A stretch of 49,339 bases of DNA, counting the filler, from Dimargaris cristalligena (Eukaryota), in assembly GCA_003614675.1 (NCBI GenBank). It is 2 parts of 2 records of this genome, joined end to end, with 100 filler letters (N's around TTAATTAATTAA, not from the genome) between each part and the next. Parts side by side here need not be neighbours in the genome. Positions count along the whole stretch, not along the records: positions 1 to 24,636 come from ML002582.1; 1 more part is not named here. One strand, 5' to 3'. Of this stretch, positions 2,598-44,400 are shown piece by piece; within the stretch, counting starts at the first letter, position 1; every line of letters starts with the position of its first letter. The translations under genes and the position numbers were made by a program. The notes beneath the pieces were generated by a model that did no database searches, was not told the DNA's origin, and worked only from the letters and a program-made list of their open reading frames with translations.

Positions 2598-4537
2598 AGT
2601 GGATGGTGGTGGAGGTTGGAGGGGTAATAGTTGACTTATCAGCGGTCTTGATAAAGTGGTTTAGTGGGGTTGAATGATGAATTTGAATTGCAATGTCAAA
2701 TAGCTCATTTGAGTTGGTTGGAGGAAGGATGGTGAGCTGCCTATATATATACGACCCTATCGACTAGGTTCACTTTAATTCACTGGGGCTCTCTTTTCAA
2801 TTGCCAAATTATCACGGACTCTGAAAGATATTCGAGTAGAATATTGAATAATAGTCGCGTATATAGAGCGGTTAGATCTAGACGACATTAACAGTCATTG
2901 GTTATAGTAACCGTTTAGTAGGGTTAAACATATTTTCAGATGAGGTTGCGATATGAGATCACATAAGGTTAATACTAAACCAATTTCACAAGAAGAAAAG
3001 TGGCTGTATGCCCCTGGATATGGACCCTTCTAAGCGCCAATCCAACCCAGCTACTGTTTGGTGTTCGATATACTACATGAACTGGTAGGAAAGTGGAGCC
3101 GTTTACAAATCTTTAGAGCGGTGCCCTCGCATTTCAAACTAGTCAACCTTATTATTCTAGCATCGACAGCAATTAAAAATTTAATATCGAAAAGATATAG
3201 CTGCTGATTTGGTCTGAATCACGACATTGGATTTCACCGTATATATTGGTATATAAATTCATTTATTGGCAGCTTCGTTACTATTTCGCATGAGTCAGCT
3301 ATTCCCGATGCAGCTAGTTCGACCAGCATATTACTGCCCAAACCGGTTAACTGCTCTTTACCGCAGGGGAAGGGTCTGTCGAAACTAACCCCATACGGAC
3401 CGAAAATAGAGCAAATATAATTGCCATGACTAAAGCCCAAAAGGTCCCCTTGCACCGACGTAATTATGGCGCGGAACCCTGAAGACCACTTTCCATTTGG
3501 GGGTCGCTCAGTAAACTGCGTTTGACGATGATGGTCTGTCGTTTTCATGACTTCAATTCGCATTTTTGTTTGTCGAAAAAAAATATAGCATGCGTGTGCC
3601 ACTTTACCATTACCAAATATGGGTTATAGATTAACATTTGTTGACATATATGGTATTCCGTGACCGTTGGCCAGCTGACCCGACGCCTTGCATATGCCCA
3701 ATATGCAGTTCGTCTACCTGTATTAACCCAGGCCAACATGCGAAATAGAGCAGTCGACCCGAAATTGCTACCCCAAGTGGGTCAAACCGAGCCAGTTTAC
3801 GGAAACCGCACTTGTGCGGTTGATTTCGGGTTAATAGGGAATGGCAATGGTAGGCTGTGGATATCCAGCATATAAAATACAGTATATGCTTTCAAGCAAA
3901 TGTGGCATTCACCAATATCCATCACTCTTAGCTCGCACTCAACGTAATTTTATGGCCTGGCTCACTAAAGAATAAATTGAAATCGATAAGGAGTATTTTA
4001 TGAGAGATAGTGGCAAACATAGGAGTGGCAAAAGAAGGAGTGGGAATATCCAACAAAGTCCCTGTAGGAATACAGAAATAAAAGATAAAGAATGTACCAA
4101 TTGTCGACGGCGGCCGGATAGAGCGCCGGGGAGAGTATAAAAGAGGGATGGGGGATGAGCGGGATAACTAGTCTAATACCTGCAGAGTGCCCCAGACAGC
4201 ATATTCGCAATTCAAGAGCAAAGGTGGCCGGGGTGGCAATACTTTTACAAACCTGGTTTATTATAAAAGTAATGTAGAAAAAAAGTACTTGGACTGTACA
4301 TTTGGTGATACATAGGCGGAGGTAGTACTCCCCCCTCAAAATAATACTGGTGCAATATCAGTAAAATATATAAACGGGTGTAGAAATAAGTCTCTAACTA
4401 AAAAGGAATGGGATATCTGGATACACAAGGCAAGTCACCGGATGGCCAAGTCATTAAGTCTAGGGGGAACAAGTCACATTTAACCACTCCGCCCTGCCCC
4501 CTCTTCCCCAGGCTAACCCGATGAATAATGGAATGGC

Positions 4538-12685: not shown

Positions 12686-15367
12686 AGGTGGGTGAATGAG
12701 TGGGGAGTTAAGCAAACTTGAGAGAGTTGGACCGCAAGTAAACGGAATGGGTCTGGTAAAAACCCAAGTTCGGTTTAAAGGTTATAGTTGCCTGAGTTCC
12801 AATGGGTAAGGAAGAGGGGGGACGATGTATATTATGTACAGAGAAGTGGGAGGGTGTTCTAGCAGTCGGAGTTTGAATGAGGGCTGGATTAAGAGTAAGA
12901 CTAGTAGGTTCTAATAAGATTAGGAGGAGAGTAGAGTAGAGTAGGCTGAGGTAGGCAACCGAATGAAGAAAGGGTAAGCTAAGAGACAAGGGAGGGCTGG
13001 ACCCACTGAAGACTCCCGGGCCAAAGCAATAGGGTTAGGGAGTGAGCTGGGACGAAACGCCTGCTGCTGGTCAAGGCTATACGACTAGGAGGAAGTGGCC
13101 GTAATATATCTCTCTCCCAAGCAACAATACTTCCGAGGGCTCGAAGGGGAAGAGTAGAGACTTTAAAGAGACTATCGCAGGTGAGACGTAAGAAAGAAAG
13201 GAAGAGTGGATTTTTTTGAAATAAACCGCCCGGGAAAGGGGGAAAAGGCTGGGCTACACCACAGAGTATAGACTTGGGCCCGGTTGGTTTTAGCCGACCA
13301 CCTGGGATACTAGGGTAGGCGTGGTGTATTAGCGGGAAATAGGGAGGTGAGAAAAAGGCTCCTTCAAGCTGGGCTATTTACTCTCCCGACTGAACCCACA
13401 CGTCAACAAGTCGGGTGAATGGGGGGGATCGTTTACTCTCAAGCCTTAGTTAATTAACTGGGGCACCGCACCCAGGTTACCGAAACGACAAGCCGAAGAA
13501 TAGCTAAAGGGTGGGGGGGGCGTGTCTATATAGATATATATAACAGTAACGCCGCCACTCCTGTGACTAAACCGGAGGAAATAGGAGTGGACCGCGTTGG
13601 AATTCCAACGAAGCAGCGCGGGGCACCGGGTTGGGAATTCCGAGTTTCAAAAGGGCCCAGAGAAGTCACGTCGGCGGAGGTTGAATCAATAGCCACAGGG
13701 GAATAGAAGGAAAATTCAACGGAACGAGCGAGCGGACGAACGAACGAACGAAAGAATGAATGAATGACTGATACGAAACAAGTGGCATACCCATGTACTA
13801 AGCACGAAAAAAGGAAACCCTTATGTAAGAGGGCAGTGAGTATATATATATATTATTTATTTATATATATCTCTATGCCTTGGTTGATGTACTAGGGAGT
13901 GTGTGCCAGGGAGCAGCTGCCCATCATCACTTTGCCTCCCCCAATAAAAACTATGACTAACTTACCAGGTCCAGGTTAATCTAAGTCCCCAGCCGACATG
14001 TAAACCAAAAACCACCCGTCGGTTAGCTGGTAATGTTGTAACTCTTCCCGGCTATGACGCGTGTCTCCGGCGCACGGGGAGGGATCATTCGACGGAGAGA
14101 GAGAAATAGAGACATACCCAAACTGGCCGACGCCTACACTGCCGAATAATCACCAGGGGTAATGGCATAATAGGGAGAGTCTTCCCCCCCCATTGTAGGT
14201 CGCGAACGAGTTCTGCATCACGGTGCGGTTCGACGCTTAGCCATTCACCCCCCTCCTACTTTACCTCATTCTTTCCCCGCACCCTTCTCCCTCATTCACT
14301 CACTCATCTACTTTTCTAATGTCTATTCACCAGACTTGGCGTATTATCTCGAATGGCTTCATGTTGACGTCTCCCTCCTTCTTCCCCCGCCTTGACCCGA
14401 ACGACACCCGACCGTACGAAGCGGGTAAAAAGGAACAAGAAGAGAGAGAGAGAGAGAGAGAGGTGAGAGAAGGGGTGTGATCGACTAACCCGTAGGGTAG
14501 GCCCCACCTCGCATTGGATTGCCCTTTTGTTTATCTCCTGACCATTATTGTTATTATTTACCATATCCCTTCGTTTGTTGAGATTTACCGACTGTGTCTA
14601 ACGAGGGTGGGGCAGTAGAGGGGATATTCAAACGAATGCTATATATATATTTGCGTATATATAGAGAGAGAGCAAGAATATGGATACTTGTGCGTGTGTA
14701 TTTGTGGCCGACATACTTAAATTAATCGTGCTATCACTTGCGATGGGGATTCGCCGCCTACTTGCAATGCTGGTGGTGTATCCAGCAAGCGGGCTGTACA
14801 GAATGGGTAGCTGTCAACACCGTATATAGGCCCCAGCAACCCGGTTCAAATATAGGTGTATATACATTGCTCTCGCGCATCCGAAGATGTTCAGATAATA
14901 AGTGGTGTTGAGCGTAAAACTCGGAATGGGGAAGCTGTTGGCGATACCAGCGGATCGGGATTACCCTCCTTCGTCATAGACTCGCCCTTACCGTAACACC
15001 TAGCTAAGCCCAAGGCGCAAAAGTATAGAAGAATATAGAACCATCTAGGGTGTTTACTTATTATTTTTGACATGCCCTTGTTTGGATTATCATTAAATTG
15101 ATAAGTGAAGGGGGGCGGGGGAAAAGCAAATAAATCAATAAACGGATTGTGAAACCCATTTCCTGTTGGGGGCAGAGATGCGCAGAAAGTAGTTGGGGAT
15201 GGGTGTGAAAAATGAAAATAAAATTAAAAAAATGTGGGCTACCTATCCCTTAACTAATGGTAATATTAGTCGATTTACATGCCCAACCCCCTCAAACAAC
15301 GCCACGTATGGCTCGAAAATGGCATTGACAAAACTCCCGCAGGTCCATAATGACGGCGGTAATCTGA

Positions 15368-16916
15368 TCATATGGGCACAATGTGACATCTGCAGGCCCG
15401 TTAGGCATAATACAATTAATGGGATAAGACCACACAATTCGAATGGGTATCGTTAGTAATCGCCAGGGATGTTAATAGGCGCGAGGCATGTCCACCTCGC
15501 TACATTGATTATATGCCTGTCTATATTCACATATACTCCCCGTATTTACATAAGCCAAGCTGGCCACCAAAAACTTACCCTAGAAAGCCGTTACCCTCCC
15601 AGGGACCGGGTACCAGCTCCAGTTCAATGGTCGTTTCAGCCGGTGACGTAGTGGTGGATGTGCGCTGGATACGGAGGGCCAGGGGTTGGTTGAGCGACTG
15701 GTACACTTGACCGGGTAACGCCTGCAGATTCTCGTGGTTAGTGTGGTCAATACCACCAAAACGAAGGAGGCGGTCATTCTTAACCAGGCCCTTAGGGTAT
15801 TAAGCCAATAAGGGGGTTATAATAATAAAAAAATACAGTGTGGAGTAATAGCGAAGGAGGGGGGGGCGAAGTGAGTCAAGGATCTAAATAAAGTTTAGAA
15901 TTACTTAACCAATGTCCAACAATCAACTTAAACTTATCGTATGGATGCCCTTTTCGAATACAATGAAGGGAAGGGAAGTGGGCGGGGTAGACTATACAGA
16001 CACGGCTACAGACTCAAAATTTAAGCTGTATGATAATGAAGCACTTACCGCGCGTTCAGCAGGTGAATTCCGGGCCACGCTATTGATCACGGCAAACGGC
16101 AGAAGGATGCTCTCGGCTAAAACGAAGATGGAAATGCAAATAGGATTACCACCTTATTGAGCTAGGTCAACTAAAATCATCTAGCTCAAGAAGGATACGG
16201 AGTCCAGCTACCACACGAAAAATTCATCATCATCACCATCATCATCAAACCAACTCGTGAAGTGCACTATAAACCCAGATAGGTATATATCCAACTTACG
16301 TGTTTCGGATTTCGGGGGGGGCTGAACCGCGGTGGCCTGGGCCTTGCTATGAACCTCATACAGGCACTGTTCCATATCGGCCATCAACTGCTTCAAATCA
16401 TTCCGCAGTTTAAGGATTTCGACCCGGATAACCCGGACAGCCGACACGTCGATATCCGCCCGGGGAAACCCCTCCGCATCGATCAGGGGATCATTAAGCC
16501 CGACCCCTTGCTAAACAAACCGCCGGTCCGAGTTTACCAACCGTCCATAATAAATAAATAAAAAACAACAATCATTATGTTAAGGGCGGTTTAGACAGGG
16601 TCAGTCGGGTAACTAAAGTGTGCATTCCGAATGTGGCCAAACCTACGAGACCAGGTGGTCAAGACTCCCTCCCCCCTCTCTTTTTATTTTTTCACTTAAT
16701 TGCCTGGCTTACCTTAGCTACTCCACCTTTGTCGCAGCCCCCATCTCCTTATTTTCTCCATTTCTGCGTCTGTGTCTATCCCCGCACTATCCCAGTTCCT
16801 GTGTTTATTATTCGGCGACTTAGCTACCTACTTACCTTGTGAAGCGAGGCTTCGAGAGTCCGGAGCTGGTTCTCGATAATGTCTTTTCGGTCAAGGAGTT
16901 CTCGAGCGGCGTCCAT
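15368..16916 (-). CDS. NAS2: 26S proteasome regulatory-particle assembly chaperone Nas2/p27 (PSMD9), Nas2_N plus PDZ-like domain, 5 exons, 197 aa
   Basis: Only partly represented in the ORF track. Exons 16916-16836, 16510-16300, 16116-16049, 15790-15579, 15389-15368 (594 nt; GTAAG donors, AG acceptors, phases consistent). Translation includes MDAARELLDRKDIIENQL, GVGLNDPLIDAEGFPRADIDVSAVR...LRND, PFAVINSVARNSPAERAGL, and LVPGPWEGNGFLGCHIVPI*, all typical Nas2/PSMD9 motifs. Confidence 0.93.
16677..16835. repeat. Left arm of a perfect 159-bp inverted repeat (first 159 nt of NAS2 intron 1)
   Basis: Base-by-base reverse complement of 16934-17092. Its inner end is the G of the intron-1 GTAAGT donor. 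Confidence 0.95.
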
Positions 16917-16933
16917 GGGTGTAAGAGTTATTT

Positions 16934-17092
16934 GTAAGTAGGTAGCTAAGTCGCCGAATAATAAACACAGGAACTGGGATAGTGCGGGGATAGACACAGA
17001 CGCAGAAATGGAGAAAATAAGGAGATGGGGGCTGCGACAAAGGTGGAGTAGCTAAGGTAAGCCAGGCAATTAAGTGAAAAAATAAAAAGAGA
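16934..17092. repeat. Right arm of a perfect 159-bp inverted repeat (NAS2 5' leader/core promoter)
   Basis: GTAAGTAGGTAGCTAAGTCGCCG...TAAGTGAAAAAATAAAAAGAGA is the reverse complement of 16677-16835. The 98-bp spacer holds NAS2 exon 1. Confidence 0.95.
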
Positions 17093-17722
17093 AAGAAGAA
17101 ATCTGGTCTCCGAATGGGATAGCGAAAGGGGAAGGGAATAAGGTGTAGGGTGGAAGTAATTCGGGGCTGGAAGCTACATAATGTGGATAACAGACGCCTA
17201 TTGGTATCATGTATTTAGGTCGTGGCTGATTAATCAATAGTCTATCCCAGTCGACCATTACCTCCTATACTAGTATGCCCCAGAACATTACACCAATTTT
17301 AGCAATGTATACAACGGCCAGTACTTTAATGTTCAAAAACGAAAAACGGTGGGGTAAGACGGGTCCACAGTTTAATGGCGTATTTAAAAAAATACCTAGA
17401 TTCAAGTGGTTTCCACGGACTAAAATCACCCTTGGGGTGAAAGCTCGCTGGTAAGAATCCATCAGCGTCACAATAAACGTTTACAAATTGGTCAAAAGTG
17501 AGGAAAGCCAGTAAGAGCGACAGGCACTATATGGGTTTTCTTCAAATAAACTAATAATACTAATAAAAACAATTGTGATAAATGAGCCCTCATTTGAAGG
17601 ACCAGAGTAATCACTAATGTTTGTGCGGCCTATAAGTATAGATCGAAATAAAGTACTAGACACGTATAAAAGTATAAAAGGGGGGGGGGTCCAAAGCTAA
17701 GGGCGACGGGAGGCCATTTCAC

Positions 17723-20058
17723 TTAGTAGGGCGCAAATTCGCTATCGGTGTCGCCCTGGAGGTCAGCGCTAGTCACGGATCCAAAGGACCGGGTCTGTTC
17801 AATGTAGTGTAGAGCATTGGTCACCTGGGGAAAGAACATTTGCGGACCAATCTTCGCAGTCAGGCCGGAACGGTCGAAAGCCACGTAGAGCTGCGGGTGC
17901 AGCTGAACGAAACAAACCACAACCTTACGCAAATGGTAGGACTCGACAATTTCCTTGAGAATGGCAAGGGCGCTGGCGTCCACGTCAGGCATGTTCTCCA
18001 CATCAAATACCACCGCCTGGGCGGGGGCCAGGCGGGCCTGCTCGGACGGATGGACGGTCAGGTCACCGAAAAGCTCCAGGCGCTTCAAACGGGCCTGCAG
18101 TTGTCCGGTGTTGGCAAAGAAAAGGGGCTCCTCAATGCGTACCATCATGATACCTTCCACGTGCTCGACGGTATCAGGGAAGTCCGGCACGGGCGCGAAC
18201 TGATCCTTGGTACCGGTCACTCGGCCCAAAATGGTAATACGCGGAATGGTGGTCCTTTTGATCACCTTCATGAGAGATAGGGTGACGGCCAACAGGATGC
18301 CGACCTCCACCGAGACCACCATCGTGGCTCCAAAAATAAGGGAGAGCAGCACAATGTCACCCCAGGCACCCACCTGGTACAAAAATTTGAGCTCGCGGGG
18401 AGTCTTGGTGAGAAGCGACAGGGCAGTGTTAAAGATAATGGCACTGAGCACGGTCTTGGGTAGGTAGTGGAAGAACGGGAGGAGGAGGACGATGGTCAGA
18501 AGCACAATGGCACCCGATATGATACCGGACAACTGGGTCCGCGCCTTGGCCCGGTCATTCAGCCGACTGCGGGCCAGAGACCCGAAGGCAGGGAAACTGC
18601 CAAAGACGCAGCCCACCATATTAGCCATGCCTAGAGCGACGAGCTCACGGTTGGGCGAGACGGAATAGTGGTTCTTGCTGGCGTACTCCCGGGCAATAAT
18701 GATGGACTCGACGATACCGATAATGGAGACGAGCATCGATGAGGTGATAATGTCCTTGTAGAAGATGGGCTCGGGGAGCTGAGGCAAGGCAGGCATGGGG
18801 AAGGCAGCGTCGACATTTCCGAAAATGGCCAGGCCTTGCCGGTGCCAGTCAAAGATGTAGCAGAGAATAGTGGAAGCCAGTACGGTGACCAGGATTTCCG
18901 GGATCTGCTGCAGCCAATTGACCCGCTTGAACCGCCGTTTGACCAAAGTGGACAGAACTAAGAAGGCGATGCAGCCCACTGAGACCCAGAGGGTCAGGCT
19001 GTGGTGCTGGGAAAAGTGCTGAACCACAAACTTCACCCGGTCGATGGGACTAGCGTGCGTGGGCAAGTTCGAGGGAATACGGTCGAGACCGCACAGGGGA
19101 ATCATTTGGCCACAAATAATCACGAAAGCGACGGCGGTAACGAACCCACGCAGCAGGGCCTTGGACAGGATAGAGTCTAGAAAGCCGAGGCGGAAGATAC
19201 CCACGGCGAAGGTAATGGCGCCCACCAGAAAGCAGAGGATGCGGGCTATCCCCTGGGAGTCAAGCAGGCCCTCGCCATTGGCCTGGTGGTTGACGGTCTG
19301 CTGGTAATCGGCGACAATGGTACCGACGAGGGTGGAAATGAGGGCCTCGGGGCCCATTGCCAAGTGGCGCGAAGTACCGAAAATACCGTATATGAAGTTG
19401 GGGATAAGGGCGGTGTAGAGACCGTTAATGGGGTTAAGCTTGGCCAGCGACCCGTAGGACAGGGCCTGGGGAATGAGGAGGCAGGAAACGGTCAGACCCG
19501 CGCGTAAGTCGTTTTGCAGGTAAGACCATGAGTACTCGGGGAGCCAGCCGAAGATGGGCACGTAGTAGCGTAAACGAGTGGCGAAGCGGGCTATGGTGGA
19601 TTTGTCCCGGCTGGGACCCGATGGATCGCCCTCTTCAACAGTGCCAGGAGTGGAGAGACAGGGCTGCTCCTCATTAGGCTCGTCGTCCTCCTGGTTGGGT
19701 TCGAGTATAGGGGTAGTTCGAAAGCCGGGGGTAAGAGGGTAACGGTAATGGCCTTCGTCGCGGTCGCCAGTGCCCTGGGGGAGAGGGCTGAAGGAGACTT
19801 GGTGAAGGGAGGACCGGCGGGAGAGGAGCGAGCTAGTCGCTATAGTGGGCGGGGTGGGCGGAGTTTTATCTATGACGGGGGGGGGGAGAAGTAGGGGGAG
19901 TATACCAAAGCGGTTAGGATAAGCGGAGGGGCTGGGTCTAAGCAGGGTGGTGAATGACTTAAATAAGGTATGGACGGCGTGGCTTCGTTTAAAGGGAAAA
20001 CGGAGGTCAAACCGGCCTGTTTGACGACCACTGGGAACTTACTTGGTTGGTTAGCCAT
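17723..20058 (-). CDS. SulP/SLC26 sulfate/anion transporter with C-terminal STAS domain, 2 exons, 720 aa
   Basis: Exons 20058-20043 (MANQP+A, then GTAAG) and 19869-17723 (after ...TCATAG); the frame is open upstream of the track ORF. Motifs YYVPIFGWLPEY, DLRAGLTV...IPQALSY, GTSRHLAMGPEA, NRELVALG, RIEEPLFFAN, VFDVENMPDVDASA (STAS). Confidence 0.92.
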
Positions 20059-24636: not shown

Positions 24637-24736
24637 NNNNNNNNNNNNNNNNNNNNNNNNNNNNNNNNNNNNNNNNNNNNTTAATTAATTAANNNNNNNN
24701 NNNNNNNNNNNNNNNNNNNNNNNNNNNNNNNNNNNN
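24637..24736. other. Artificial assembly spacer / contig join
   Basis: 44 N + TTAATTAATTAA (stops in all six frames) + 44 N = exactly 100 bp; not biological sequence. Confidence 0.95.
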
Positions 24737-34200: not shown

Positions 34201-37200
34201 CAAGTCATGAGTGCCCCCGCCTGCACGTTAATGAAATGGTTCCCCAGCTGATGCCCTACGACCGTAGTTATTACTATACTGCACGTTGGTGAAGGCCGCA
34301 CCGGTACCAATGGGCCGGGAAGAGCGACCTCGGCTGGGGGGGGGGTGATAAGTTTATCCCTAATAAAATCAGTACCATAATACTTTTATTTCTCCTATTC
34401 CCTCCACCGAGCCCGATACCAACGGCCCTTACCGAATTATCCACCCGCCCCTTTTGTCACTGATACATCCGAAAGATGAACAAGAACATACCGACTACTA
34501 TGGTTTCGAAATTGTTGGGTTCGGTTTGGCCCTTATCCTCCCTTTCTCTTTCTTAGGCAACAGTAAGATCCGCCGAGCCGGAAGCCGGCACTGAGTCGGT
34601 GGGAGTGAATGAGCCACCGTTGATAGAGGCTAGGCTGTAATCGACAATAGTGAACCCTTCGACCCTGGCTTTATTCTCTCCCTCATACACCATACACACA
34701 CTCTCTCTCTCTCTCTCTATAATTTTCCCTATCCCCTTCCTCACAGCCAGTCTTAGTGGGAAGGTGATGAATTGAGAACGTGTATATCTACAGTTGCGAT
34801 TGGGAAAACCGGTGTGTAGGTGCCCATCTATAAGTGTGGACGGGTGAATCGAGGTGAATTAGACAGTGTGTACAAAAATGAACACTACTATCCTATCTCC
34901 AAAGGGTCCTTTGAAACGAACCACCGCCCCCAATATAACCCAGTTTGCCAAGTTAAGGGTGGCGGTCCTGAAACTACCGAAATTGGGTTTCGTTCCGCCC
35001 GCCTCTATTTTTGTCTACCAGCATGCAACTCTAAGGCCCCACCGGCAATTACGAAACCAATGTACGAAAGTTTTATATGCGGAGAATTGCCCCTTCACTC
35101 ATTATAGGTATTACTAGGGCAATCCGTACCATCTCAATTGCCAAACGGTACTGTGTGCAATATATATTCTGGGTAGGTGCATCCGATTATCTACTATTCT
35201 AATATCGACCCATATTCCCCCAAAAATACATTGGCCTAGTGGTATTCCAAATGCGAATCGTTCTTTAACTATTTCTTCAGGATTTACGCATTTCCGTAAT
35301 AACGGAACTGCAGAAATGGCTGTGTATCCCGCATTATCGAAGGGGCAATCTATATACCCCCCTCTGTCCTAACGGCTCGTCAAGTAGAGGGGGATACATG
35401 AGGAGAATTCGGTGGACTACCACCGCACCCTACGTTTGGCCAATGGTGGATTGCCGGAATAGTCCCTATTTAGAGGGTGCCGTGGTAGCAGCGGTTCCTA
35501 AAACACTTTAGTTGGGCTCACTAATAAAAGTTGCGTACCAGTGAAAGTTAAGGCCTCAAGGGCAGGACATAAAATAAATGAATCGGTGCCGAAGGGTTGG
35601 CACTAGTGTACTATTATTTAACAGTATATAAGTTATATTTAGATCTTGGCCCAGTGTAGTAGACGTCACTTGTGTTTTTTATTATTCAGCTTCAATAAAC
35701 TGACAGGTCAGCGATGTAGTGAATAGGATATGTTCCCAGGGGGAATGTGGTTGACAAGTTGACTGAAATATTGTTGATACCCAATTAGCCAAGCAGCCAG
35801 CTTTACCAACAAATCACCGGCAAGGTAACCCAGTTGTCTGTCATCCGGGAAAATACGTCAGCCCTAAAAATGAAACCTATTGCAGCACCAAGCCGACGAG
35901 GCAGTGAGTGGGGGGGTCGGTAAACTAATGGGCGAGAGAGAGAGAAAGGGATAGATAGATAGAAAGAGAGAAAGTGGGCGTGTGTGAAATTAATTGACAA
36001 ATGGTGTTACCATTAATGCGCCCCGTATCACTTAAGCCAGTGATCGGCCACTAGGCGCGGATTAGTTCATTTGACCGCCTATATCACTGCCATTAAGTCT
36101 TCACGGATTGCTGGTATTAGATACGACGGCTAACCCTTTAATGTAATCGATTGTGCTTATAGTATGGTTCGGCGAGGGTATGTGGTCTTTTGCCAACGTC
36201 ATTTTCGACTAGTTTGCTTATTGTTCCTAATCTGCAAGATCCCACAGTTACTGGCGCACCCATCATCCCGGAGGAAACTACCTAGTGGTCCACGACACCC
36301 CTTTGTTATTCATTTAAAACCTATATACTATATATTGGGGGATGTAATCGAACCCTCCAATCGAAGGGCCAAAATGCCAGCTAGTTAGCCGCCCACCCAA
36401 TGGTGTCCACTTGGGAGGGAAGGATGTGCCGTTTCGACACTATACCCTAGGGGACGGGACAATAAAAAAAATAGATATAATACAATATTATTGCATCGTA
36501 TTGTTTGCGGCGCCTTAAAGCGCGGATTGGTTGTGATGGGCCAAGATCCTATAGAGACTATGGGGTTGAGTAGTATCGATTTTAAACGGCAGTCGATGCC
36601 CACAAACCCACTAGGCGAATGGCCTTAGAGAGTAAGGGAGATGTAGGGGGGGGGGAGGGATGGGCGTCCCCAAAACTGAATTGCCTATATTTGTCTGTCT
36701 GTCGATCCTTTGCCCGTCTCGTCACATTTATCCCACTCGTCTTTACAATGGCATACACCGCTCTTCGATTGCTTCATAGTAATGTTCCCAAGGATGGGAA
36801 GTCGGCTTGATAAAGGGTGTATAATAAATACACGATCCACCGACCCCCCCTCTGTCGGCCAGCCGGGCCAGAGTAGTGGAAACGTGCCTAAGTTCAAAGA
36901 ACCAAGCCATGCGACATGTATTAGACTGAACGAAGGAGGAGGGGGGGGAGGTAAAGGGAAAAATAATCGACGAAGGGGGTTGCGGTAATACAATAGAGGA
37001 AATATCCGGCGCAAAAGAGGTGGGAATGGTATAACCTCGCCTTGGTCTATTAACCCCCATTGTTTCGATTGAACCAAACCTGTGGCACTGTTTAGTACCC
37101 AACGGGTAGTACAAGGCGTTATTCGATGAGGGCAGTAACCATCCGAAGAAGACCGGTGCGAATTGGGGACGGAAGGGCGGGGGAAATATGATGACTTATA

Positions 37201-39684: not shown

Positions 39685-40192
39685 GGTTAGTAAGTGGTAG
39701 GGAAAGGTTTCGTTTTTTCTTTAAATCTATAGAAAATAGCAAACTAGGTGCTATTAAATCAGGGCAGAGTGATGCGGTGAGCAAGGGATAGGCAGGGCAC
39801 TGGGTGTAGTAGTGATGATGGGACTGTGGAATAGGAGGGAATGAATAGTAGGGGCAAAGTTTTTTTTTTAAAAAAAGGGAGAGGATAAGGAAGGGGAAAT
39901 CGGCGAAGATAATGAAACGGCACAGCAGGGCGGGCTGTGATTGTGAATAGGAAGTGTGCAGCAGGGCCTGAGGGTCAGGCAAAGCTGTCGAGCTAATACG
40001 ACAAAGTGGGAGCAGACTGAGAGAGATATATATATATAGAAAAAAAGAGAGAGAGAAACTTGACGTAGAACGACCGAATGGCGGCGTAACGTGCGGTATA
40101 AATTATAAAACTGTAGTGGCTGTTTGAGCACGGTGGCTTCAAGGCAAGACAAGGGGAATGGAGTCACCCTGTAGTGCGGGGACGGGGTGGGC

Positions 40193-40200
40193 TATTTATA
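40193..40200 (-). promoter_or_regulatory. Candidate TATA box (TATAAATA) for the kinase gene
   Basis: Consensus TATA on the minus strand ~510 bp upstream of the ATG. The intervening sense sequence is pyrimidine-rich and contains no ATG. Confidence 0.45.
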
Positions 40201-41415
40201 TGTTCCTGTGGAAGGATAAGACGATTAAGGGGGAAAAGTTCCCAATGGCTGATGGGAAAATTGCGAATACCGAACCGAGAAATTTGACCCATTTGTGGTA
40301 GTGCAAGGGAAAAAAGGACAAGAGAGAGAGGGACGGGAGGGATGGACGAGTGAGGCAAGGACAATCGCATCGTGAAATGGTGAATAGGCGACCCAGGGTA
40401 CAAAGGGCGGGATTGCCCTCTCCCTCCTACCCTCTCTCTCTCTATTATCCCATAGGCCTATTACAACCCGCGGTTCAATTAGGTCTAGTGAGAGGAGAGG
40501 GGGAATCGGGTCTAGTTACTATGGAGAGAATGGGATTTAAAGAGAGAGAGAGAGAGAGAGAGCGTCTCCATAAGGAAAACAGCCCTATAGTTTACCCTAT
40601 ACCCCCAAAAAACGAGTTTACTTGTTCGCCCACTTTCACACTTAGTATCACGTTTATTACTCCGCCCGCTCATTCACTGCGTCCGCGCCCTCTCCGTACG
40701 GGGCTCGTTCAATCGCTGTAACCCCCTCCCCTCGGTCGCCCCCATACAGCTCGTCGTATTAGTGTGCGTGTGTGTGTGTATGTGTGGGCGTGTAAATGTA
40801 TATATCGGTGGGCCCTAATACCCTCCCTCATTCAATCCCAGCCCAATGGCTCCCTCTTCCATACTCACTCCTGCCAAACAGACCGCCACGCCTTAAGAAC
40901 CGGCTACTGAGTGCGCTCACGGCGATTAGTTGGGGTGCTCTGTTGTTTTGTTATTTGATATAAATATTATCAATGTATATATTCGAATCGCTAACGGATA
41001 TCCCTTGCCGCAAAACCCTGCCACAACTAACTAACTAACTGGTCATCAGGAGTAGGATGCTCCTTCCCCCCCCCCCCAACATAAAATAATATGATATACT
41101 AATCACTAATGGTCTTCGCCTTATTCTCTCTGATACTGTAACGACGCCCTGCCTAAGTGCGCGAATGGGGCCTGCATCGACCAACGCCGACCCAGCCAGT
41201 AAGTCCCTCGATCGTCTCCATGGCCCTCTTTCCCTATCTCTCTCCTTTTGGGCTCATTTACGCATGGCTCCTCCGCCCCCAAGGTGTCACTGTATCACCG
41301 AAAGGCATAACAATTCCATGCTGGATAGGTTGGCTCGAATCTATCCGTTAACGTACCACTGATTTCATTCTTGGGGCGCGTAGACTCCTAGAAACGGCAG
41401 GAGATAGAGAGAGAG

Positions 41416-41420
<5 letters not shown>

Positions 41421-41448
<28 letters not shown>
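41421..41448. repeat. (GA)14 microsatellite
   Basis: Direct read. Similar GA/CT runs occur at ~14441-14461, ~34701-34718 and ~40541-40562. Confidence 0.9.
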
Positions 41449-41453
<5 letters not shown>

Positions 41454-44400
41454 GGGAAGGGAAGGTCTGTGTCGTCGCGTAATACCAACGAACGCCGAAT
41501 TTCTTCGTTAACGCTCGGCCACTATTTCCATGTTTACTATACTGTACATATTTTACCCAATATACTCTTTTTATATATACATATATATATATATATTCGT
41601 TCCTTTCTTTTCTCGCTCTTTCATATATCTCACACAAGGGCAGTATGGTCGAAGGTATTCGTTCATTGTGAATCCGACTTGCCCTCCAATTCTCTCCGAC
41701 GACTTGACCTTTTTTGCCCATTAGACTAAAAATAAAGCTATGCGCCTCTGTAACAATGGGCATATTGGTGCGTACCTTGGGGCCGGGTCGGTGGTAACAA
41801 TGACTGCCGGACTCGGATCAATGGGTCCTGTGGCCTTATGCCTACCCTCCCATTTATTTCGTATTCGTCCGCTGAGGTCCGTCCTCGCCGTCCTATATGT
41901 TTTTTTTTACACCAATGCATGGGCGACTCTTCTATTCCTAATGGAAAGGTCCCTGGAAGTTTAGCCAAAAGACTCGGCTCCCCTTTTTCGTTTATCCTTT
42001 TAAACTGGGACTGTCTTGGTTCAAACGGTCCTAGCTCGTTGTATTCCAGCGGCTCCCAAATTATAACAATAGCTGTTAAAGTCGAGCCACTCATATCTGG
42101 CCTTCCACCCCTTCCCCCTTTCACCTGTCCATTTAAATGACTCTGCATTCTGCTACAGACCCGATTTATCGCTGGCTGGTGGGTATAATTTGGGGCGGAT
42201 AAACAGATCCGGCATGGCGATTAATATTGTCATTAACCATAGTAATCTCCCACCCCATCTCCATTTTCCGAATAGTAGGCTCTACCGGGTTTTCAGTGGC
42301 TTGCAGTTTTGTTTATCAACCACCCAGTCTAATGTGCACTGGTCCTAAATGAACTAAATATTGGCGCTGTGGCCGGGGGGTTGTTTAACACCTTTAATTA
42401 AATCGATATCAAGTATGGGAATCCGATAATAAAAGGATTGCTGTAAGTTTTTCAAAAAGAAAGACCTAGTCGCGCCCCTATTCCAAAGCGTCTTCCACTG
42501 CCCTCCCTCTGACTTACAGGGCATCCCCCGTCGGCACTATCTTGTACATTGTTAGCCGGGATCTTCTCGCCGTATAATGCTATGGAGTATTTTATGCACG
42601 GATAAAAACAGCCGACGCTGGACACTATTATTCTTTTCTTTCCGACTTAATTGAATTCGTGTCGTTTAGCCTAGTATAGAAATACGGGCTGTGGGATACC
42701 AGAATGCCCTCTTCGGTCCCTGGTCCGGCTCTAAGAAACTCGAACATGGGGGAGAGGGGGTTAAAGCCAGCCTCTTATTTCCGCCTATTCACCACTTGTC
42801 CCACCTTTAGCCCTTCTGTTTCTTCGGTTTTAGTCGACCCATACCCTGGCCTTAGGATATAACGGTTTTCCGGATGATACTCAATTGGGTTACTGGGCTT
42901 TTCATAATACAAATGTTACCATGGGGGTCAATAAGGAGATTTTAAGCTCCGCTTTACTACACTAAACTCAATTTGGGTCCTTATTCCCTTTTCTCATTTT
43001 GCGTATACCCATTAGGCGGGCGGTTGGCTGACCTATCCTCGCCCAACCTTCTTCCGTAGTCCTACCGCCAATATATTCTGGATTCCCTCGCCTCATATCT
43101 TGCCGTTCCTCTCCCTTGCGGTTTTATTATTCGCTATCACTAGTCCTGCTTCCACGCTATCTCTTGGTTGTGCTTCCTAAAAGGTCGGTCCCGTGGGCGC
43201 ATACTACCATGCTAGTGAGAACGATTGGATATTTTTCCAGTCACCAGCTGCTATCGGTTTTTTATTGTGCTATTCCCCACGACCATTCAGGGCTAGGCGG
43301 TCAATCAACTCCCCACGACTCTTTACTTCAAAAGTAATGACCACTTGCCCCACCTAAACATCAACCATCCACGGCCCGCTTATTATATTAAAACAACGTA
43401 GATGATGGTCCCTTAGATAAGTGATTCGATATTAGCGGTTCAACCAAGTCCGAAACCACCACCCCGGTGATTGGGCCTAGAGCAAAAATCCTTCTTTAGC
43501 CTAAATCACCGCGATTTTTGTTTCGCTAATGGTAAAATCATCGAATCATCCCAAATGTACGATTCCTTTAACAATGGAAGCCATCTGAATCGCTTGCATC
43601 GACAAGGGTCATCCCGATTGCCCTCATCATCGCCAGCCTCCACCCATTCACATTGGCGGACTAAACCATTATCGGCCATAGTCCTTTAAACCTTTTAGAA
43701 AATGAAGAAGAATAAAAAACAGGTAGGCTAACCACCATGGTCATGTGGTATGGGGGGATGTGTGGGGTTACACGTTTCTACCCATACCGTTGGCTATGTT
43801 CGTTACATTTCCAATAAAGTCCCCTTGCGTTCACCCCTGAAATAAATTAATCATCGGCCAACAAAAAATAGAGACTAGTCGTAAAAAACCCACCCAACCC
43901 ATGCTTGCTATTCGGAAACGCAAAGTGTGGGTAGTACCGTGAAACTCCGGTCTATTCGCCGGTCATACCAGCCGGGAAATTCAAGGGATCCCACCTCTAC
44001 ACCCTAGCCCTCGCTCAATCTATATTGTATTTTTGGGAGGGCTTAGGCACGGCCTTTGGGACTACGAGGCACATGTAATAATGGTCGTTGGGATGAGCCC
44101 CACATTGCTAGTTCATTGGCTAGGGTAAACGCTGGTCACCCACATGAGCAAAATTCTTCGTCGGTTCGTGGGTTCATCTGAGAACCCACTTAGAGGTGAG
44201 TGTGTGGCGTGGTAGTTGCCGGTGAACTCGTATTATAGCCTGGCGAGTAAATGTATATTATTATTTGAGCCATGGGCAAAGGGCTCCTCCCCCACCCTAA
44301 ATAATAAAAATAATCCACAAAATATGCCTCTAACACCCTCCTCTCAACCCTTCTCCACTTCACTAGTCTCATGTATAGCTTTCTATAATTCGCTATATCT

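Follow-up and report, generated by a model that had tools for sequence, protein, structure and literature searches.

The NAS2 gene and its surroundings

The DNA analysed is a stretch of 49,339 nt from Dimargaris cristalligena, referred to here as the window. It consists of two contigs, the first 24,636 nt long, joined by a linker at positions 24637–24736 that is made up of 44 N, TTAATTAATTAA and a further 44 N, and that includes stop codons in all frames. The minus strand of the first contig carries a gene for a homologue of NAS2/PSMD9, a proteasome assembly chaperone. On the plus-strand numbering used throughout, its four exons lie at 16836–16916 (exon 1), 16300–16510 (exon 2), 16049–16116 (exon 3) and 15578–15790 (exon 4, where the annotated model stops at an in-frame TAA). 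A search for longer relatives gave 17 proteins from 80 candidates; P0001, a protein of 191 aa, was the best of them and the only one with 100% identity to the gene product. Its precomputed families are Nas2_N and PDZ_6, and the C-terminal PDZ domain is given as PF17820; translations of single exons gave no Pfam match for this C-terminal PDZ. The upstream neighbour of NAS2, at 17723–20038, is a sulfate permease gene that includes a STAS domain.

Exon 2 encodes most of the Nas2_N domain (Pfam PF18265, E 3.9e-20) and matches the profile from position 25 to position 79 of 79, so that about 24 profile positions remain to be encoded by a short first exon. Exon 1 encodes 27 amino acids that are identical to residues 1–27 of P0001, and in P0001 they are followed directly by the residues of exon 2. 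Exon 3 likewise matches P0001 exactly. In six fungal homologues, aligned by eye, the same N-terminal pattern as in exon 1 precedes the conserved LVDAEGFPRADIDI block. When searched alone, the 27 amino acids of exon 1 gave no Pfam match with E allowed up to 10; exon 1 is nevertheless held to be real because of its identity to P0001 and its resemblance to the N-termini of the homologues. The three introns of the model all open with GTAAGT in the window. Intron 1 as written (16511–16835, minus strand) is 325 nt long and reads GTAAGT...TTTAG, and the other two annotated introns are 183 and 258 nt long.

At the other end of the gene, the in-frame TAA that closes the P0001 model lies within a GG/GTAAGT donor at 15578. 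If this donor were spliced to an acceptor that ends near 15390, one further base and CHIVPI-stop would follow, and the C-terminal GCHIVP of the fungal homologues would be regained (15390–15578, minus strand). As judged by this reading of the sequence, the annotated NAS2 protein is probably six residues short, a last small exon having been missed.

The inverted repeat around exon 1

Two segments on either side of exon 1, at 16677–16835 and 16934–17092, are perfect reverse complements of each other over 159 nt each (100%, checked by script), and they enclose a spacer of 98 nt. The spacer consists of the 81-nt exon 1 and the 17 nt at 16917–16933 that separate the upstream arm from the ATG on the minus strand. 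The upstream (right) arm, at 16934–17092, therefore lies immediately 5' of this short stretch and the NAS2 start codon, and on the sense strand it is 74% pyrimidine. The first base of the left arm, when read along the minus strand, is the G of GTAAGT, the donor of intron 1. The repeat ends sharply on both sides: on the inner side C at 16836 stands against A as the complement of 16933, and on the outer side C at 16676 stands against T as the complement of 17093. Its flanks are CCCCCC and AAGAAG, and no target-site duplication is present. The initial annotation had described arms of 159 bp, a 98-bp spacer formed by an 81-nt exon and 17 nt, and an arm that starts at the splice donor; this geometry is correct to the base.

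A 45-nt piece of the arm has just two sites in the 49,339-nt window, one in each arm, and 0 of 100 dinucleotide shuffles gave a match. Chance is ruled out as the origin of a repeat of 159 nt. In a scan of the whole window it was the sole perfect inverted repeat of at least 30 nt, the N-run linker aside.

A second inverted repeat was found near the start of the first contig, at 379–481 and 764–866, where it adjoins TA-rich low-complexity sequence. Its 103-nt arms are 78% complementary and 282 nt apart, and as they are diverged it does not belong to the class of perfect artefact proposed below for the repeat in NAS2. Both contigs also include long intergenic GA/CT and TA dinucleotide tracts (14431–14474, 34701–34740, 40014–40576 and 41392–41464).

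Contigs from public sequencing runs

Among the public runs listed, five DNA runs and no RNA run contain the locus. X1 to X4 belong to one sample, which is a possible source of the window, and X5 belongs to another sample and study. The segment 16400–17350 was compared with four of the five, X1, X3, X4 and X5. For all four runs the comparison was with Logan contigs and not with raw reads, and such contigs drop minor variants and may break at repeats.

The upstream arm 16934–17092 is unbroken, with both flanks, in all four runs. Single contigs cover it in X1 (record 2) and X5 (record 11), and in X3 (records 5 and 6) and X4 (records 8 and 9) it is covered by two contigs that overlap by 30 nt. The intron-side arm behaves differently from the upstream one. 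None of the four runs has a contig in which 16681–16830 occurs together with its flanks, and neither join of the left arm is seen in the contigs of any of the 4/4 runs, from the two samples. The one exception on 16681–16830 is a 54-nt fragment of X3 (depth 4) that is compatible with both arms.

Other letters stand in this place. A 14,660-nt contig of X5 (depth 173) equals the window over 16400–16680 with no differences, continues with 63 other letters, and then follows 16831–17350 with four base differences, so that the jump from 16680 to 16831 skips 150 nt of the window. The contigs over 16831–17350 from X1, X3 and X4 show no differences from the window in this part and carry 57–58 unlike letters ahead of it in each of the three runs. 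The contig depth across the other letters at 16831 is 173 in X5 and 12–42 in X1, X3 and X4. A 30-letter consensus of the loose end before 16831 is identical in X1, X3 and X4 and is found nowhere in the window at up to three mismatches. We assume that the 63 letters of X5 and the loose ends of X1, X3 and X4 are the same sequence. The left-hand contigs of the latter three runs end at 16676–16680, and the full bridge is seen in X5 only. Near 16677–16680 there is one difference in X4, and the alignment of X1 and X3 ends at 16676. The initial annotation had held that spanning sequence with a different content at one arm would refute its reading of the repeat as a working hairpin, and the X5 contig is a sequence of exactly this kind.

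The shares of sampled 31-letter words agree with these alignments. The joins are spanned by 60 words, of which nine recur elsewhere in the stretch and 51 are specific, among 1042. If only the join-spanning words were missing, a word share of about 0.95 would be expected, and 0.96–0.97 was observed in X1–X4; for X5, with the four base differences added, the expected and observed shares are 0.83 and 0.85, respectively. The observed shares hence fit a loss of the join-spanning words only.

The differences between X5 and the window, all upstream of NAS2, are 17040 A>G, 17131 G>A, 17153 G>A and 17190 A>T. With four differences in 520 nt, X5 represents another strain or haplotype, which could differ in structure too. 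Position 17040 is situated in the upstream arm, and the two arms of the window are identical, which is consistent with a template from the window's own strain.

Side branches of low depth that run into unlike sequence were also found in the 951-nt stretch, in X3 (record 4) and X4 (record 10), and none was found in X5. The branching contigs, at 16733–16762 / 17007–17036 and at 17134–17163, are short and of low to moderate depth, 54 nt long with a depth of 4 and 55 nt long with a depth of 13.7. These branches look like further chimeric joins in the DNA of the sample of X3 and X4.

The two arms also differ in composition. On the sense strand the intron-side arm is 26% pyrimidine, as compared with 54% in the rest of intron 1 and 54–62% in introns 2 and 3. 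Because the upstream arm continues into its flanks in all four runs, and because the composition of the intron-side arm is unlike that of the introns, the upstream arm is genuine and original and the intron-side arm is the copy, in agreement with the direction of copying proposed in the initial annotation. The part of the left arm that the contigs leave unsupported, 16681–16830, is an inverted copy of 16939–17088, and these 150 nt of inverted upstream sequence occupy the place of 63 real nucleotides. In the real locus, then, the pyrimidine-rich upstream stretch is separated by 17 nt from exon 1, and exon 1 is followed by the GTAAG donor of an intron that would measure about 238 nt (325 − 150 + 63), in line with the 183- and 258-nt introns of the same gene.

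The inner join lies at 16831–16835 and is 5 nt long (CTTAC on the plus strand, GTAAG in the sense direction on the minus strand), and the outer join lies at 16677–16680 and is formed by 4 nt, TCTC, common to the real left flank as given by X5 and to the end of the inverted copy. The pentamer of the inner join is the real donor of intron 1 and has its complement where the upstream arm starts. From 16831 onwards to the right, the contigs of all four runs agree with the window; the donor is a native one that the copy did not supply. The suggestion that a splice donor had been supplied by template switching is thus not upheld, as GTAAG belongs to the real sequence. The donor pentamer happens to have its complement in a pentamer that lies 17 nt before the ATG, and it acted as the switch point, which removes the seeming coincidence of an arm that starts at the splice donor.

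Origin of the intron-side arm

The intron-side arm is very probably an artefact of in vitro amplification and assembly, an alternative that the initial annotation had mentioned and that the contig data favour. There is a correspondingly high probability that the 159-base inverted repeat is not real as a biological feature. During whole-genome amplification, a growing strand would have left its template for the opposite strand of the same molecule, where short complementary stretches primed it, and inverted joins would have resulted, with GTAAG/CTTAC (5 nt) at one of them and TCTC/GAGA (4 nt) at the other. The joins may stem from one doubly switched molecule or from two separate chimeras. The assembler would then have followed a path through both, swapping 63 real nucleotides for 150 inverted ones, and it probably took the chimeric path since in the source-like data the true path breaks within a few letters of 16680. 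In this scheme we infer two parts, amplification as the maker of the joins and the use that the assembler made of them. The assembler needs reads with both joins, so molecules of this kind must have existed in some library, and they could have arisen either in the tube or in the cell. A minority of molecules may carry the repeat; contigs show presence, not absence.

The published methods are of the kind that this explanation calls for. In the genome paper, the D. cristalligena genome is described as obtained from 1–100 sorted cells by phi29/REPLI-g multiple displacement amplification (MDA), with pooled libraries co-assembled by SPAdes in single-cell mode at k 21, 33 or 55 (PMC6784888). According to a companion paper, D. 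cristalligena lacked an isolate assembly; the paper also mentions chimerisation during amplification (PMC8042348). As judged by the species and by the methods of the genome paper, the window and the runs would come from phi29-amplified DNA.

The structure was further compared with the inverted chimeras of MDA. In the study by Lasken and Stockwell (2007), 406 of 475 chimeras were inverted, the joined segments being mostly less than 10 kb apart on the same molecule, and in 93.5% of the inverted joins less than 10 kb apart the priming site had at least 2 bp, and up to 21 bp, of complementarity (PMC1855051). Palindromic artefacts from such chimeras are described for reads and assemblies (PMC6218980, PMC9984789, PMC13265396). 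Here, 16681–16830 is the exact reverse complement of 16939–17088, so that the orientation is that of an inverted chimera and the arms are identical. The join partners are about 100 nt (16831/16939) and about 410 nt (16680/17088) apart, within the 10 kb typical of MDA, and the complementarity of 4 nt at 16677–16680 (a value from X5 alone) and of 5 nt at 16831–16835 falls within the range of 2–21 nt. As with MDA chimeras, the joins are missing from an independent DNA sample at the level of contigs, X5 bridging the place with 63 other letters, and X5 itself may be amplified or not. The locus differs from the classic case, which has a single join, in that two joins here return to the collinear path. 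It also differs in that the artefact is a clean replacement inside a 24.6-kb contig and not a fold-back at a contig end, and in that amplification of this particular DNA is itself deduced.

Three other origins were weighed against amplification. The least improbable of them, to which we nevertheless give little credence, is a four-point replication template switch, private to one nucleus or cell lineage, in which 63 nt of intron 1 gave way to 150 nt of inverted upstream sequence; single- or few-cell libraries with the change would then have come to dominate the assembly at this spot. The structure suits a two-switch event, with an inverted copy of nearby sequence in place of the original, a few shared bases at both switch points and no target-site duplication, and the exact return of both joins to collinear sequence is more simply explained by one doubly switched molecule than by two independent chimeras. 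Against such a switch, the copy, at 150 nt, is longer than is usual for 'short' template switches. Events of this type have been described in real genomes (PMC5453318, PMC8604942), and the four-point mutations among them resemble the present case in that a nearby reverse-complement copy replaces the original, leaving a perfect hairpin-forming repeat with no target-site duplication (PMC5453318). Those mutations are, however, heritable and present in the organism's DNA, whereas here the copy is missing from the contigs of 4/4 runs, namely all three compared runs of the possible source sample and the independent sample X5. Moreover, phi29 can yield the same two-switch product in vitro, and amplified DNA is known to be rich in such inverted joins (PMC1855051). 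If a private mutation were nonetheless the true origin, the assembly would record a de novo 150-nt template switch in one nucleus or spore lineage, with the GTAAG donor of an intron as switch point. It would have made a 159-bp leader–intron hairpin in a housekeeping gene, caught because the assembly came from a single cell or few cells.

It is less likely still that a real repeat, fixed or allelic, was masked by collapse of the arms in a de Bruijn graph, in which case the leader–intron hairpin would exist in vivo. Identical arms do have the same canonical 31-letter words, at which contig builders may break or simplify, and breaks near 16680 are indeed found in the contigs of the source-like sample. 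Collapse of the graph cannot, however, generate the 63 other letters that adjoin 16831 in X5 or the 57–58 in X1, X3 and X4. These letters, present at full contig depth (173 in X5, 12–42 in the others), are positive evidence that the sequence here differs, and since they stay unexplained, graph collapse was rejected as the cause of the missing arm. The deficit of the word share from 1.00 is also about the number of join-spanning words, and the composition of the intron-side arm is unlike that of the rest of the NAS2 introns. A foldback or MITE-like mobile element, or an introner-like insertion, with its terminal repeats around exon 1, is scarcely credible. Young foldback elements typically have long and perfect terminal inverted repeats, and the arms have this form. 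Against such an element, the flanks CCCCCC and AAGAAG are unlike the target-site duplication that an insertion leaves, what lies between the arms is a conserved coding exon that includes the start codon, and the 49-kb window includes no third copy of the arm. Furthermore, one arm is missing from the read-derived contigs while the other is present in 4/4 runs, which insertion of a whole element would not produce. The mobile element was rejected on the missing duplication, the coding interior and the missing arm. Complementarity between leader and intron was also sought in an orthologue. The metagenome scan gave one locus (L001, match at 2894–3046) with 49% identity, which is too distant to inform either way; within 1.5 kb it has 10 weak inverted repeats of 20–42 nt with 71–85% complementarity, none of which brackets a first exon as in the window.

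The preferred explanation, amplification followed by assembly, implies that an amplification chimera with two joins can lie seamlessly in the interior of a long contig and mimic a striking regulatory structure. Where an assembly was made from amplified DNA, a perfect inverted repeat that has a short spacer and lacks a target-site duplication accordingly needs a check against reads before it is interpreted. The public record appears to hold 150 wrong bases in intron 1 of NAS2, and the protein is unaffected. With the artefact removed, the gene is an ordinary NAS2/PSMD9 homologue apart from the last exon that the public model probably missed. The leader–intron hairpin that had been proposed to gate U1 or to feed Dicer loses its basis, as the intron-side arm is missing from the contigs of both samples. 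The fungus most likely has no hairpin to mask the splice donor, so that neither gating of U1 nor small RNAs from the arms need explaining, and the repeat carries little biological weight.
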